The position numbers were made by a program, and so were the translations under genes. From Centroscyllium fabricii (lineage: Eukaryota), in contig JBNRSN020000039.1 of assembly GCA_051313645.2 (NCBI GenBank), positions 5,890,001 through 5,954,000 on the forward strand: a DNA stretch of 64,000 nt. The letters are read 5' to 3'. Under the pieces are notes generated by a model, which saw only the letters and a list, made by a program, of their open reading frames with translations, made no database searches and was not told the origin of the DNA. Shown in pieces: positions 1 to 34,810 of the stretch (positions within the stretch are counted from its first letter, which is position 1; each line of letters starts with the position of its first letter).

Positions 1-240
1 TTATTACAGGAAGGAAGGAACGAAAGAAGAAAGAAAGGAAGAAAGATAGAAAGTAGTAAAGAGAGAAGGAAGGAAACGAAGGTAGAAAAAAAGAACGAGA
101 GAATGAGAGAAATAAATAAATAAATAATGACCGAAAGAACGAAGGAAGGAAGAATGTGAGTAAGATCGAAGGAAAGAAAGAAAGTAAGAAAACGAAAGAA
201 ATACGTAATGCAGGAAGGAAATAATGAAGGAAATAGGAAA

Positions 241-3050
241 GGACCGTGCTGGAGTCCTTCTTTGCAGCTCTATACATTCTCCAGTATGAAATTAGACATT
301 GTCCTGAGCTATAATCCTCCTGTACCCCTCTGCCCTTTTTCCAGTCTGAAATAGTACATTCTCCTGGGCTGACATCCTCTTGTGTCCCTCGACACATTCT
401 CCTGCCGCAAATTATTCATGCTCCTGGGCTGCAAACTTCCCGTGTCCGTATACACCTTTTCCAGTCTGAAATTCTACATTTGCCTGAGCTGGACTTCTCT
501 TTTCCACCTCTGCACATTCTCCAGTCAGAAATTGTGCATTGTTCGGGACTGGAATCGTCCTGTGCCGCTGTAGACTTTCTCCAGTCTGGAATTGATCATA
601 ATCCAGTAGGCCCATCTACAAATTGCCGAGTATGAAATTATATATTGGCCTCAGCTGGAATCCTCATCGGCCCCTTTACATTTTCTCCCATCTTAAATTG
701 TAGATGTTCTCTCCTGGGACACTCCTGTGCCCATCGACAATTTATCCAGCCTCAACTTGTCCATTGACTTGTGCTGGAATTATCCTGCGCCCCTCTTAAT
801 TTGCTGCAGTCCGAAATTGTACGTTGTCCTCGGCTGGAATCCTCCTGTGCCCCTTTACATTTTCTCCTGTCTTACTTGTAAATTGGCCTCGGCTAGAATT
901 TCCTGTGCACCTCTACATTTTCGCAATTCCGAAATTGTACAATGGCCTGGGCTGGCATCCTCTTGTGTCACTCTAGATTTTGTCCATAATGAAGTTGTAC
1001 ATTGGACTGAGCAACAATGTACTATGCCGCTCTAAACTTTCCCCAGCCTGACACTGTATATTGGCCGGTGCTGCAATTCACCCGAGCACATCTACAATAT
1101 CTCCAATCTAAAATTGTGCACTGGCCTGGGCTGGAATCATCCTGTATCCCGCTAAATTGTCTCCAGTCTCAAATTGTACCGTGGCCTGAGCTGGAATACT
1201 CCTACGTCCCTCAGAAACTTCTCCCATCCGTAATTGTGCATTCGCCTGGGCTGGAAACCTCCTGTGCCCCATTTCAATTCCTCCATTCTCAAATTGTTTA
1301 ATGGCCTGGGAGATAAACCTGTTCTGTGACTCTGGATTTGCTAAAGACTGAAATTGCACATTGTTCTCTGCTGGAAACAATTTGATATTTGCTGGTATTT
1401 TATCCAGTTCGAAATTGAACATTTTCCGGTGTTGGAATATGCCCCTGTCCCTCTATACTTTCTGCAGTCTGAAATTATACATTGGTCTGGGATGGTATAC
1501 TCCTGTAAACCTCGGCCCTTCCACCAGTCTGAATTTGTAATTTGGTATGTGCTGGAGTCCTCCTGTGCACCTCTAAACTTACTGCAGTCTGAAATTTACA
1601 TTGCCCTAGACTGTAATGCTCCATTTCACTCTACATTTTCTCCAGTCTGAAATTGTACATTGGCCTGTACGAAAATCGTCCTCTGCCCCTCTGCACTTTT
1701 TCCAGTATGAAATTGTACATTGTCCTGTACTTTAATCGTCCTGTGTCCCTCTGCACTTTTTCCAGTATGAAATTGTACATTGTCCTGTACAATATACGTC
1801 CTGTGCCCCTTTGCACTTTCTCCAGTCTGAAATTGTACATTGGCCTGGGCTGGAATTCTCCTGTGCTACTCTGAACCATCGCCAGGCTGAAATTGTACAT
1901 TGGCCTGTGCTGAAATCCTCCTGAGCCCCTTTGTACTTTCTCCAGTTTGAAATGGTATATTTGCTTGGCCTAGAATTCTCTTGTGCCACTCTGTACTTTC
2001 TCCACTTTGAAATTGTATATTTGCTTGGCCTAGATATCTCTTGTGCCACTCTGGATTTTCGCGAGACTGAAATTATATTTTTTCCCCGGCTGGCAAACTC
2101 CTGTGCTGCTCAAAACATTGTCCAGTCTGAAATTGTACATTGGCCTGTTCTGGAATTCTCCTTTGGCACTTAAATTGTTCTCCAGTCTGAAATTGTACAT
2201 CGGCCTGTGCTGTAATAATCCCGTGCGCCTCTACACTATCTCCAGTCTAAAGTTGTGCATTGCCTGAGCTGGATTCATACTGTTCAACTTTACATTTTCT
2301 GCAGTCTCAAATTGTACATTTGCCTGGGCTGGAATCCTCCTGCGTTAATCTGAACCTTCTCCCATTTGTAATTGTTCATTAGCCTGGGCTGGAATCCTCC
2401 TGTGCCCCACTTCAATGTCTCCATTATTAAATTGTATAATGGCCTGTGATGGAATACTCTTCTGCCACTCTGTTTTTTCTAAAGACTGACATTGCTCATT
2501 GTCCTGTGCTGGAGCAATCTTGTGACTTTCTAGAATGTATCCAGACTTAAATTGTACATTTTCCGGTGATGGAATTCTCCGCTGCCCCCCTATAATTTCT
2601 ACAGTCTGAAATTGTATATTGGTCTGTCCTGGAATCCTCCTGGACGTCACTAAACTATCACCATTGACTGTGCTGCAGGCATCCTGAGCCCCTCTCTACT
2701 TTCTCCACTCTAAAAGTGTATACTGGCTTTGGCTAAAATTCTCTTGTACCACTCTGGACTTTCTCCAGACTAAAATTTGACATTTTCCTTTGAAGGAGTC
2801 GTCCGCTGACCCTCTGTACCTTCTCTTTCCTCAGGTTGTATAATGTCCTGGTCTGGAAACCTCCTTGACACCTCTGCACTTGCTCCAGTTCTAAATTATA
2901 CACTTTCCAGAGCTGGAATACTCATGTGTCCATCTAAACTGTCTCCAGCTTCAAATTGTAAGTTGGCCTGGGCTGGAGCACTCCTGAGCCCCTCTACACT
3001 TACTGCAGTCTGAGCATGTACATAGGCCTAGGCTGAATTAATCCTATGCC
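241..3050. repeat. 60-bp minisatellite array, unit 1
   Basis: Consensus ttctccagtctgaaattgtacattggcctgggctggaatcctcctgtgcccctctacact; the 60-nt period is visible as vertical alignment between 60-nt lines. Confidence 0.95.
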
Positions 3051-3235
3051 TGTCGACCCTATCTCCATTTTTTTTGCTGACATCTCCTCCGTTATAATGG
3101 CCATTCTCTCGCTATCCTGGTTAATGTAGTTATTCAACCTTCCGTGTTTCATCACATTTCCTGCCTCCTGCTTCCAGGTAATCTTCAGCCTCCTGGAATC
3201 TTCATATTACTCATTTTTCTTAGTTTCTTGTTATT

Positions 3236-4140
3236 CAATTCAATTCAATTCAATTCAAGTTTTATTGTTATTGCAGAGTACTAGTACAATACAACGAGAC
3301 GAAGACTCGACACTCCCGAGAGTAGTGCAAACAAAACAAACAAACCACATAAATAAATTGCATACAGTAAAGTTCATTATCAGGCGTGCAGGTGCCGGAG
3401 TTTCTTTTTAGAGTTCAGGAGGCTGACAGCCCTGGGGAAGAAGCTGTTCTGAAATCTAGTTGTGCGGGTGCAAACTGCTCTGTAGCGTCTCCCGGAGGGC
3501 AGAGGGGCAAACAGACTGTGGCTGGGGTGTGTGGGGTCTTTTATAATGTTCATAGACCTCCGTAAGCAGCGTTTGAGGTAGATGCTTTCCACTGACGGTA
3601 GCTGTGTACCGGTAATTCGTTGGGCAGTTTTGACTACCCGCTGCAGGTTTTTCCGGTCCGAGATAGTGCAATTACCATACCAGACAGTGATGTAGCTTGT
3701 CAGTATGCTTTCTATTGTGCAGCGGTAGAAGTTGGAGAGGATGCCGGATGACAGCCTGGCTTTCTTCAGCTTCCTAAGGAAGTACAGGCGCTGTTGGGCC
3801 TTCTTAACCAGAGAGGAGGTGTTTAATGTTTAACCAGAGAGGAGGTGTTTAATGTTTAATGACCAGGAGAGATCTTCCAAGACCCCGAGGAACTTGAAGC
3901 TGGACACCCTTTCCACCTCAGCCCCTTGGATGAAGATGGGGGGGTGTCTTCTGCTTCCAGTCCTCCGGAAGTCCACTATGATCTCCTTCGTTTTCTTGGT
4001 GATCAGTGCCAGGTTGTTGTCGGCACACAAACCCACAAGGTGCTGGATCTCATCCCTGTAGGCTGACTCGTCGTTGTTGGTGATCTGGCCAACCACCGTG
4101 GTGTCATCCGCGAACTTGATGATCGTGTTGGAGCCATGGA
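3236..4140 (-). mobile_element. Rex1/Babar-type LINE, 5'-truncated RT fragment
   Basis: Encodes IIKFADDTTVVG, VERVSSFKFLGV and LPSGRRYR..RTTRFQNSFFPRAV; (TTGAA)n tail seen as (aattc)n at 3236-3258. Confidence 0.88.
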
Positions 4141-33504: not shown

Positions 33505-33628
33505 TTTCTTAGATTTGTGTGTTTCTGGGTATATAGGGAGAGGGTAGCAGGGGGTTGCGGAGTTTGGATGATCAGCCATGATCTCATCAAAATGGCTGAG
33601 CAAGCTCGAAGGGTCAAATGGCCTACGC
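33505..33628 (+). mobile_element. SINE/CR1 tail fragment before N gap 33629-33763
   Basis: ggatgatcagccatgatctc..gctcgaagggtcaaatggcctac. Confidence 0.6.
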
Positions 33629-33989
33629 NNNNNNNNNNNNNNNNNNNNNNNNNNNNNNNNNNNNNNNNNNNNNNNNNNNNNNNNNNNNNNNNNNNNNNNN
33701 NNNNNNNNNNNNNNNNNNNNNNNNNNNNNNNNNNNNNNNNNNNNNNNNNNNNNNNNNNNNNNNAGAATGAAGAAAACAAGAAAGGACAGGACTGGAGTCC
33801 TCCACAGCCATCTACACTTATCCAGTCTTCAATTGGCTGTTGGCCCGAACTGCCTTACTCCTGTGCCAATTTACACTTTAAAGAATCCATAACTGTGCAT
33901 CAGACTGGGCTGGAATTGTCCTGGGCCACTCTATATTTTACCAATCTGAAATTGTATATTGGCCAGGGCTGGCATCCTCTTGTGCCAGG

Positions 33990-34810
33990 TCAGAAGATTG
34001 GCAGATTAACGTGAGTATATGCGAGATAATCCACTTTGGCGACAGAAACAGATAGGCAGACTATTAACTGAATGGAAATATATTGGATGACGTGGAAGTG
34101 CAAAGTGACCTGGGTCTGCCTGTGCAGCATTCGGTGAAGGTAAGTATGCAGGTGCAGCATGCGATGAAGAAGGCAAATGGTATGTTTGCCTTCATAGCGG
34201 AAGATTTTGAGTACAAGAACAAGGATGTCCTGCTGAAGATGTACAGGGCCTTGTTGAGACCACACCTTGAGTACTGTGTGTACCTTTGGTCGCCTTATCT
34301 GAGGAAGGATGTTCTTGCCATGGAGGGAGTTCAGATAAGTTTCACAAGGCTGATACCTGGGATGGCAGGAATGTCGTATGAGGAGAGATTCGATTTATTG
34401 GGCTTAAATCGATGGAGTTTAAAAGAATGTTGTGGATCTCACCGAAACGTATACAATTCTGACACCTCTGGACAGCTAGATGCAGGAAGAATGTTCCCGG
34501 TGATCATAGAGCCCGGAACCTGGGGGCACAGTCTAAGGATATGTGGTAGGCCATTCAGGACAGTGGTGTGGAAGAATGTATTCATCCAGAGAGCTCTGAA
34601 CCTGTGGAAATCTCTACCACAGAATATGTTCATTAAATATATTCAATAAGGAGTTAGATATATAACTTAGATCTCAAGTTAGCAAGGGATATGAAGAGAA
34701 GGCAGGTACGGGGTACTGCGTTTGGATGATCAGGTAGGATCTCATCGAGTGATGGAGCAGACTTGAGGGAACGAATGGCCTCCTCCTGCTATTTTCTTCA
34801 ATGTGACTAT
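33990..34810 (+). mobile_element. Decayed CR1 LINE 3' fragment truncating array 8
   Basis: Encodes LLRPHLEYCVYLWSPYLRKD. Confidence 0.88.

Follow-up and report, generated by a model that had tools for sequence, protein, structure and literature searches.

Tandem promoter and signal-peptide cassettes as the probable 5' end of a secreted Ly6/uPAR gene in Centroscyllium fabricii

The 64,000-nucleotide stretch of the Centroscyllium fabricii genome analysed here (the window; G000:C922:5890001-5954000 of a 7.2-Gb assembly, window base 1 being 5890001) carries a series of tandem units that combine a candidate promoter, a short signal-peptide leader and an array of 60-bp repeats. A preliminary description of this DNA had tentatively read the units as a family of secreted two-cysteine repeat proteins and recognised no known family. 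The leaders most likely belong with two exons of a Ly6/uPAR protein located outside the window, and we consider it very probable that the window holds the 5' end of a three-exon secreted Ly6/uPAR gene, in which the promoter, exon 1 and the start of intron 1 have been stacked in tandem.

The cassette cluster and its downstream exons

A position-weight scan located 161 ungapped monomers of the 60-bp repeat on the minus strand of the window and 0 on the plus strand, grouped as eight arrays that span 227-34006. In the direction of the gene, each unit is ordered as a TC-rich tract, a conserved block, ~0.5 kb of spacer, a proximal promoter, the leader, a 35-nt linker that starts with GTGAGT, and the array. 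The tandem units and their repeat consensus were thereby confirmed. The earlier count of about eight copies holds for the arrays in the window, whereas the cluster as a whole (block A, below) comprises 12 units, four of which lie to the left of the window. A conserved block ending in GTGAG had been assigned to every unit; the GTGAG end is present in four of the six copies of the block caught by our search pattern.

The coding part of the leader is 46 nt long, 15 codons plus one base before GT, and its donor is in phase 1. All five leader ATGs described previously (6878, 13261, 16152, 19975 and 30160) were placed exactly, with caacag before three of the five. Only the leader at 6878, in unit u7, is intact within the window, and its sequence is the same in all three genomic copies of the locus; the other four have stops or have lost their donors (Table 1). 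Each of the 25 leaders that we tabulated has an HNF1-type palindrome, full or degenerate, 98-99 nt before its ATG, beside words that we take to be FoxA-like and C/EBP-like; this palindrome, like the Ly6 exons, was overlooked in the preliminary description. The HNF1 consensus used, GTTAATNATTANC, is that given in the accessible part of PMC8391549. We also considered that the GTGAG block might mark the end of an upstream non-coding exon. Because GT is absent from two of the six copies of the block, u9 has no caacag acceptor, caacag itself has no pyrimidine tract, and the HNF1 site is found 99 nt upstream of the ATG, we prefer to interpret this region as a proximal promoter.

The leader region had 27 genomic matches, all on C922 and falling into three blocks (A, 5.88-5.92 Mb; B, 6.39-6.43 Mb; C, 6.82-6.85 Mb). 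Blocks A and B are 99% identical over >85 kb, and block C is 95-98% identical to them. The blocks contain 8, 8 and 9 leaders, respectively, ahead of a single exon 2-3 pair, and leader sequences are identical between the genomic copies. Eight of the 25 leaders are intact: u7, u9 and u10 in A and B, and u7 and u9 in C. The best-kept leader is that of u9, whose block A copy (C922:5888952) is 1 kb left of the window; a u3 leader, missing from the window copy, was found in the third genomic copy, without its GT. Units pair as u5/u9, u6/u10 and u7/u11, and u8 and u12 have a promoter and leader deletion in common, indicating that a four-unit block was duplicated (u5-u8 to u9-u12, or the reverse). In four DNA sequencing runs, which may derive from the assembly's own sample, the exon-3 variants separated into distinct contigs (0 and 16 differences, depth 3-8), and the introns collapsed (depth 9-20). 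Copies A and B at least therefore exist in the reads. Over exons 2 and 3 the same runs covered the introns evenly, with no joint at the exon ends.

The two downstream exons are on the same strand as the leaders. In block A they lie ~30 kb to the left of the window (exon 2, C922:5860108-5859986; exon 3, C922:5859314-5859196). In block C, ~0.8 kb past the last array, two bases, the residues Glu-Ala and an LxCxxC motif come after a phase-1 AG acceptor; the second exon, 670 nt further on, closes with CCxxxxCN, five more residues and the stop codon, and AATAAA comes after it. Both exons are open in all three blocks, with ten cysteines, five per exon, and the LxCxxC start and CCxxxxCN end of the domain are present in each copy. 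The stop five residues past CN leaves no glycosylphosphatidylinositol (GPI) signal, in contrast to the hydrophobic tail of an unrelated intact Ly6 gene on C1488 that served as our control. Ly6/uPAR genes are described, in the portion of PMC4839075 available to us, as having three exons, a signal peptide in exon 1, the motifs LxCxxC and CCxxxxCN, and ten cysteines.

Exon 2 alone matched Pfam UPAR_LY6 with E values of 6.4e-4 and 4.5e-4, matched toxin-type Pfam models weakly (E 0.075 and 0.015), and gave no match in a word search. A profile of four exon-2 copies found nine proteins among 1.84 billion. We looked up seven, of which six were named; all six come from ray-finned fish (bichir, sturgeons, bonefish, electric eel and arowana) and are called CD59-like, UPAR/Ly6, cytotoxin-like or hypothetical. 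The closest by sequence, XP_039620971.1 (Polypterus), XP_028672808.1 and KAK1151930.1 (Acipenser), are all labelled 'CD59 glycoprotein-like'; XP_029113326.1 (Scleropages) is also among them. CD59 proper is GPI-anchored. Four of the homologues extend to the domain end; their chains stop at CN and hence have no GPI tail; the 'CD59-like' names look automatic, and no CD59 function follows from them. The bichir protein had seven genome matches, all at this locus or at a paralogous locus on C1045, and found just itself when used as a protein query. Run against a set of eight pieces, a profile built from the homologues matched each of the six exons on its own, at E 1e-17 to 1e-5, and neither read-through product; the homologues had been retrieved with exon 2, so that only the exon-3 matches are independent. 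The same profile matched the solved structures of CD59 and Prod 1 by sequence. A genome search with the Pfam LU family gave three other, weak places and missed the C922 and C1045 loci. By every sequence feature tested, the locus appears to encode a secreted single-domain Ly6/uPAR protein. Apolipoprotein and actinodin, two earlier candidates, were dropped once exons 2 and 3 came to light.

The C1045 locus (C1045:1366900-1497000) contains four tandem copies of exon 2, each preceded by spacers, and one exon 3. The copies look broken, with a cysteine lost in three, and promoter, leader and array were absent from the 160 kb that we fetched. This is the same gene family, again duplicated in its 5' part only. 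A large array with a period of ~27 bp lies upstream of it (C1045:1502150-1516720).

From leader to mature domain

The three C922 copies of exons 2 and 3 differ far more than the DNA around them. Between blocks A and C there were 48 differences in 239 exon positions and 37 in 1765 flanking non-coding positions (Fisher p 2e-24); the corresponding counts were 39/239 and 38/1765 for B and C, and 17/242 and 14/1774 for A and B (Fisher p 7e-9), where 15 of the 17 exon differences fall in exon 3. The exons thus diverge ~tenfold faster than the introns, which remain 97-99% identical. Nearly all of the exon changes are non-synonymous (non-synonymous vs synonymous: A/C, 45 vs 4; B/C, 38.5 vs 1.5; A/B, 15.5 vs 1.5), with proportions per non-synonymous and synonymous site (pN/pS) of 0.250/0.078, 0.216/0.029 and 0.086/0.028, respectively. 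Cysteines, frames and splice sites are unaltered across the three copies. This combination argues that three genes are working, probably under strong positive selection, and working genes would imply the use of at least one first exon.

The phase-1 donor of the leader fits the phase-1 acceptor of exon 2. The control gene (G000:C1488:187692100-187696509), a GPI-type Ly6 gene with three exons, has the same layout with a short intron. In a scan for hydrophobic exons that run from an ATG to a phase-1 GT donor, covering 73-94 kb upstream of exon 2, u9 and u7 were the two most hydrophobic candidates in all three blocks (3.29 and 3.28, the next reaching at most 2.56, among 9, 5 and 3 candidates). When 893 open ATG 15-mers were scored against the signal peptides of homologues, including those of bichir and sturgeon, the four open unit leaders ranked 1, 3, 4 and 5. 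The spacer had 31 matches in the genome, 27 on C922 and 4 on C1045, and each of them belongs to a block that has a downstream Ly6 exon 2.

The segment that multiplied in tandem, to 12 units, comprises the 5' flank, the promoter, the probable exon 1 and the first part of its intron, which includes the minisatellite; exons 2 and 3 stayed single. The entire 50-90 kb block was later copied to three sites on the contig. Most cassettes decayed, the one nearest exon 2 losing its promoter and leader. Growth of the cassette number by unequal crossing-over, between arrays or between TC tracts, is our guess. Transcription would start at an intact upstream cassette, most likely u9, possibly u7 and perhaps u10. 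The phase-1 donor would then be spliced over 27-37 kb, past the remaining cassettes, to exon 2; the intron would measure 26.7-28.8 kb from u9 and 34.7-36.7 kb from u7. Exon 2 would supply the last two residues of the signal peptide, with predicted cleavage before LxC, where the mature domain would begin; the secreted domain would have ~76 residues and five disulfides. The promoter may be driven by HNF1, which would point to a tissue of liver, gut or kidney type. HNF1B is active in the kidney and in the genital ducts too.

More tentatively, the product might be a secreted recognition or defence protein engaged in an arms race. A role in defence or plasma is the leading candidate, at somewhat less than an even chance; a secretion of the reproductive tract is a clearly weaker possibility, some other role is slightly weaker again, and a product of the skin or a venom gland seems improbable. 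It is also possible, if unlikely, that two or all three of u9, u7 and u10, one survivor of each duplicated pair, are used. The locus would then be a variable-first-exon array in which just the promoter and the signal peptide vary.

Several observations weigh against joining the leaders to these exons, or against the assignment of the exons themselves. The proportion of intact leaders, three of eight per block, equals the survival of 0.39 simulated under neutrality, so that leader intactness by itself carries no sign of selection. Over 52 nt, no change is clearly private to the u9 leader (one is ambiguous), compared with three for u5; such numbers are too low for a test, and the u9 promoter is no better kept (10 vs 9 changes in 148). 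Rank 2 of the 893 scored 15-mers is held by a non-unit ATG at window position 55440, which has no phase-1 donor in range, and signal peptides in general resemble one another. The C1045 paralogues have no leader and hence provide no independent link between leader and exon 2. The splice is a prediction from layout and phases. A search for RNA data sets covering window positions 5700-7400 listed none, a result that says nothing about expression. Exon 2 alone falls below the Pfam cut-off (20.6 of 24.8 bits, a cut-off set for the whole domain) and found no relative among solved structures. In A and B every duplicated pair has one intact and one broken leader, a pattern that is not significant, as its chance with three survivors is 8/20.

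The neutral survival of the leaders would suit an alternative in which all cassettes are dead debris within the intron of a working exon 1 situated elsewhere, either further upstream or with an unusual donor, given that our scan covered 73-94 kb and GT donors only. We regard this as improbable. The debris would still be copies of the Ly6 gene's own exon 1; u9 and u7, the best candidates, are unchanged in all three copies; and a genome search with the leader pattern placed 21 of 22 matches inside these blocks, the remaining one being a chance match. We rejected a leader-like match at C723:80365847, which was without promoter homology, a donor, or a Ly6 exon within the 50 kb fetched.

The 60-bp array and other features of the window

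Under the stacked-exon model the 60-bp array most likely sits in the first intron of the Ly6 gene. The preliminary description had instead suggested that it was the coding body of the protein, each unit being or having been a gene for a secreted 20-residue, two-cysteine repeat protein; the Ly6 exons would then be neighbours or a later capture. We give this reading slightly less credence than the one in which all cassettes are dead, although part of its basis was sound: four of the six consensus frames are open, and read-through from the leader ATG does enter the frame that we call DWRK. As two of the three sense frames are open, in-frame entry is unsurprising, and the read-through frames stop after 2-82 codons in all 25 leaders.

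Constraint was assessed on 287 near-complete monomers from 12 units, which share ancestry, so that counts are not independent; their mean divergence from the consensus is 0.22. The non-synonymous to synonymous ratio (omega) was 0.85 (DWRK), 1.17 and 0.95 for the sense frames and 1.15, 0.97 and 1.01 for the antisense frames. Ancestral monomers, reconstructed from the 19 of 68 columns represented in at least four units, contained 108 variants, 28 of them synonymous vs 21.6 expected, with an omega of 0.74. In favour of a coding array, omega is lowest in the DWRK frame among the six in both tests, stops in this frame are below expectation (204 vs 286, a ratio of 0.71, and 5 vs 8.5 among the ancestral variants), and 279 of 362 inner monomers hold to 60 nt. 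Against it, an antisense frame has a similar stop deficit (0.65 of expected), a DWRK-frame stop is present in 125 of the 287 monomers, and five stops remain among the 108 ancestral variants. The two cysteine codons retain Cys in 44% and 55% of monomers, compared with a chance expectation of 54%, and 8 of the 83 changes in length preserve the reading frame. There is no clear constraint; the skew is small, and a remote coding origin is conceivable, nothing beyond.

Searches for relatives of the array led no further. A 26-nt monomer pattern had 26 matches in the 7.2-Gb genome, all 26 in the three C922 blocks, vs 0 for the reversed control. No intact array was present among the 150 listed of 169 genome matches, and the one off-contig match among those listed, C1:230847509, was rejected as an unrelated 20-bp minisatellite. 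The repeat protein had no Pfam family at cut-off in five of five queries, no match among 30 candidates from the protein database, and no relative in the Atlas, where the best score was 0.87, of low recognition. In ten of ten comparisons the monomer was no closer to the Ly6 exons, intron 2 or the adjacent long interspersed nuclear element (LINE) than shuffled sequences were. With no clear constraint, no intact array among the matches listed, short read-through, and phase-matched Ly6 exons 2 and 3 under selection as a better partner for the leader, the repeat-protein reading is unsupported. The wider claim is supported: rather than a plain satellite, the units are gene-like cassettes, each built around an exon for a signal peptide with its phase-1 donor.

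The least probable alternative, that the whole locus including exons 2 and 3 is made of pseudogenes whose exons diverged through gene conversion with unseen paralogues, could draw on the leaderless cassette nearest exon 2 and on the broken C1045 relatives (four exon-2 copies, one exon 3, Cys lost in three), but it is hard to reconcile with changes that are almost all non-synonymous next to near-identical introns, with ten cysteines, frames and splice sites that are all kept, and with genome searches that gave no further close paralogue.

Transversions are frequent among the substitutions in the array, with G>T (0.115) and C>A (0.112) both above C>T (0.103) and G>A (0.087). A more diverged variant of the repeat makes up the six or seven monomers closest to the shared intron at C922:6800683-6801050. 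A 104-codon hydrophobic frame on the plus strand of the spacer consensus was dropped, as it has no ATG. The features of the window, including those unrelated to the cassettes, are listed in Table 1.

Table 1. Cassette components and other features of the window (window positions)
Feature	Position	Strand	Remarks
u7 exon 1, coding part	6833..6878	-	15 codons + 1 nt (MKTALLVLTLICLRR); GTGAGT donor follows at 6832
u7 proximal promoter and 5' untranslated region	6879..7206	-	HNF1-type site, degenerate, at 6976
u7 60-bp minisatellite array	4862..6797	-	31 ungapped monomers; interpreted as intron 1
u8 array	227..3070	-	42 monomers; promoter and leader deleted, deletion shared with sister u12
u6 leader	13216..13261	-	stop at codon 14; GTGATT donor
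u6 array	11895..13180	-	19 monomers
u5 leader	16107..16152	-	stop at codon 14; GTGAGT donor; HNF1-type site at 16250
u5 array	15113..16071	-	16 monomers
u4 leader	19930..19975	-	stop at codon 3; donor lost; full HNF1 palindrome at 20073
u4 array	18531..19894	-	22 monomers
u3 promoter remnant	24863..25017	-	HNF1-type site at 24924; leader absent
u3 array	21194..22134	-	12 ungapped monomers
u2 leader	30115..30160	-	frame open; donor lost; full HNF1 palindrome at 30258
u2 array	28177..29668	-	16 ungapped monomers, broken up by interspersed repeats
u1 remnant	33828..34006	-	3-4 monomers, cut by LINE fragment
5' flank, example	32469..33480	-	TC-rich tract, conserved block, distal spacer
Further 5' flanks	~4147-4407, 7812-8053, 14133-15061, 20597-20840, 26700-27034	-	
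LINE in u7 flank	7986-11089	-	near full-length; endonuclease 354 aa, reverse transcriptase 701 aa, one frameshift between
Direct duplication	34751-37409 and 41524-44128		91% identical; around a decayed Gypsy-type element at ~38400-41600
Degenerate minisatellites	37777-38427 and 53175-53633		periods 35 and 44/87
LINE	44878-49180	-	reverse transcriptase frame 727 aa; GC-rich repeats
G-protein-coupled receptor gene	53962-54873	+	single open frame, 303 aa; rhodopsin class, DRF motif, Pfam 7tm_1 E 7.5e-18; presumably GPR139-like

Comparison with known systems

We searched the literature, mostly open-access articles and without supplements, where annotation tables could name the gene, and found no paper that deals with the locus or describes a Ly6 gene whose first exons are stacked. 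A UPAR/Ly6 fragment is named in shark mucus, in one table row of the part of PMC10707392 that was available. The family is known; the layout of stacked first exons is unusual. The supposed new protein family is removed, and a real gene has been uncovered in its place. Gene finders would probably break or miss it, as exon 1 is short and the intron of 27-37 kb is full of decoy leaders.

In its general plan the gene resembles secreted Ly6/uPAR genes of the SLURP1 and PATE type, which, as far as the consulted part of PMC4839075 goes, share the motifs and the ten cysteines and have the three exons, with the signal peptide in exon 1, that we propose here. The fish homologues are closer still, with a chain that stops just past CN and a similar signal peptide. 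Unlike SLURP1 and PATE-type genes, promoter and exon 1 are stacked here, and intron 1 would extend over 27-37 kb and hold a private 60-bp minisatellite.

The arrangement itself recalls UGT1A, the clustered protocadherins and GCNT2, in which tandem similar first exons, pseudogene members among them, precede one shared exon set and undergo birth and death, according to the section of PMC1885805 that we could consult. In those clusters, however, specificity is encoded by the first exon and conservation is found in the shared exons, whereas here the first exon would encode only the signal peptide and the shared exons are hypervariable; several first exons may be in use. If several cassettes are used, the locus would be a promoter-only version of that layout. 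The amount or variety of the secreted three-finger protein could thereby increase, and, with three copies diversifying at the pace of venom toxins or courtship pheromones, this would point to an arms-race secretion not described before in this fish lineage.

With respect to sequence change, as many as a quarter of the non-synonymous sites differ between copies whose introns differ by 1-2%, which is the pattern of snake toxin genes, in a secreted fish Ly6 family for which the literature searched gave no function. Snake three-finger toxins (PMC2474615) and salamander PMF (PMC4029566), in the parts of these papers available to us, likewise have duplicated genes with strongly changed mature sequences and fixed cysteines, and the snake genes also have near-identical introns. 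Those families duplicate whole genes and not a promoter-leader segment, and only three complete copies are present here. The likeness concerns evolution, not function.

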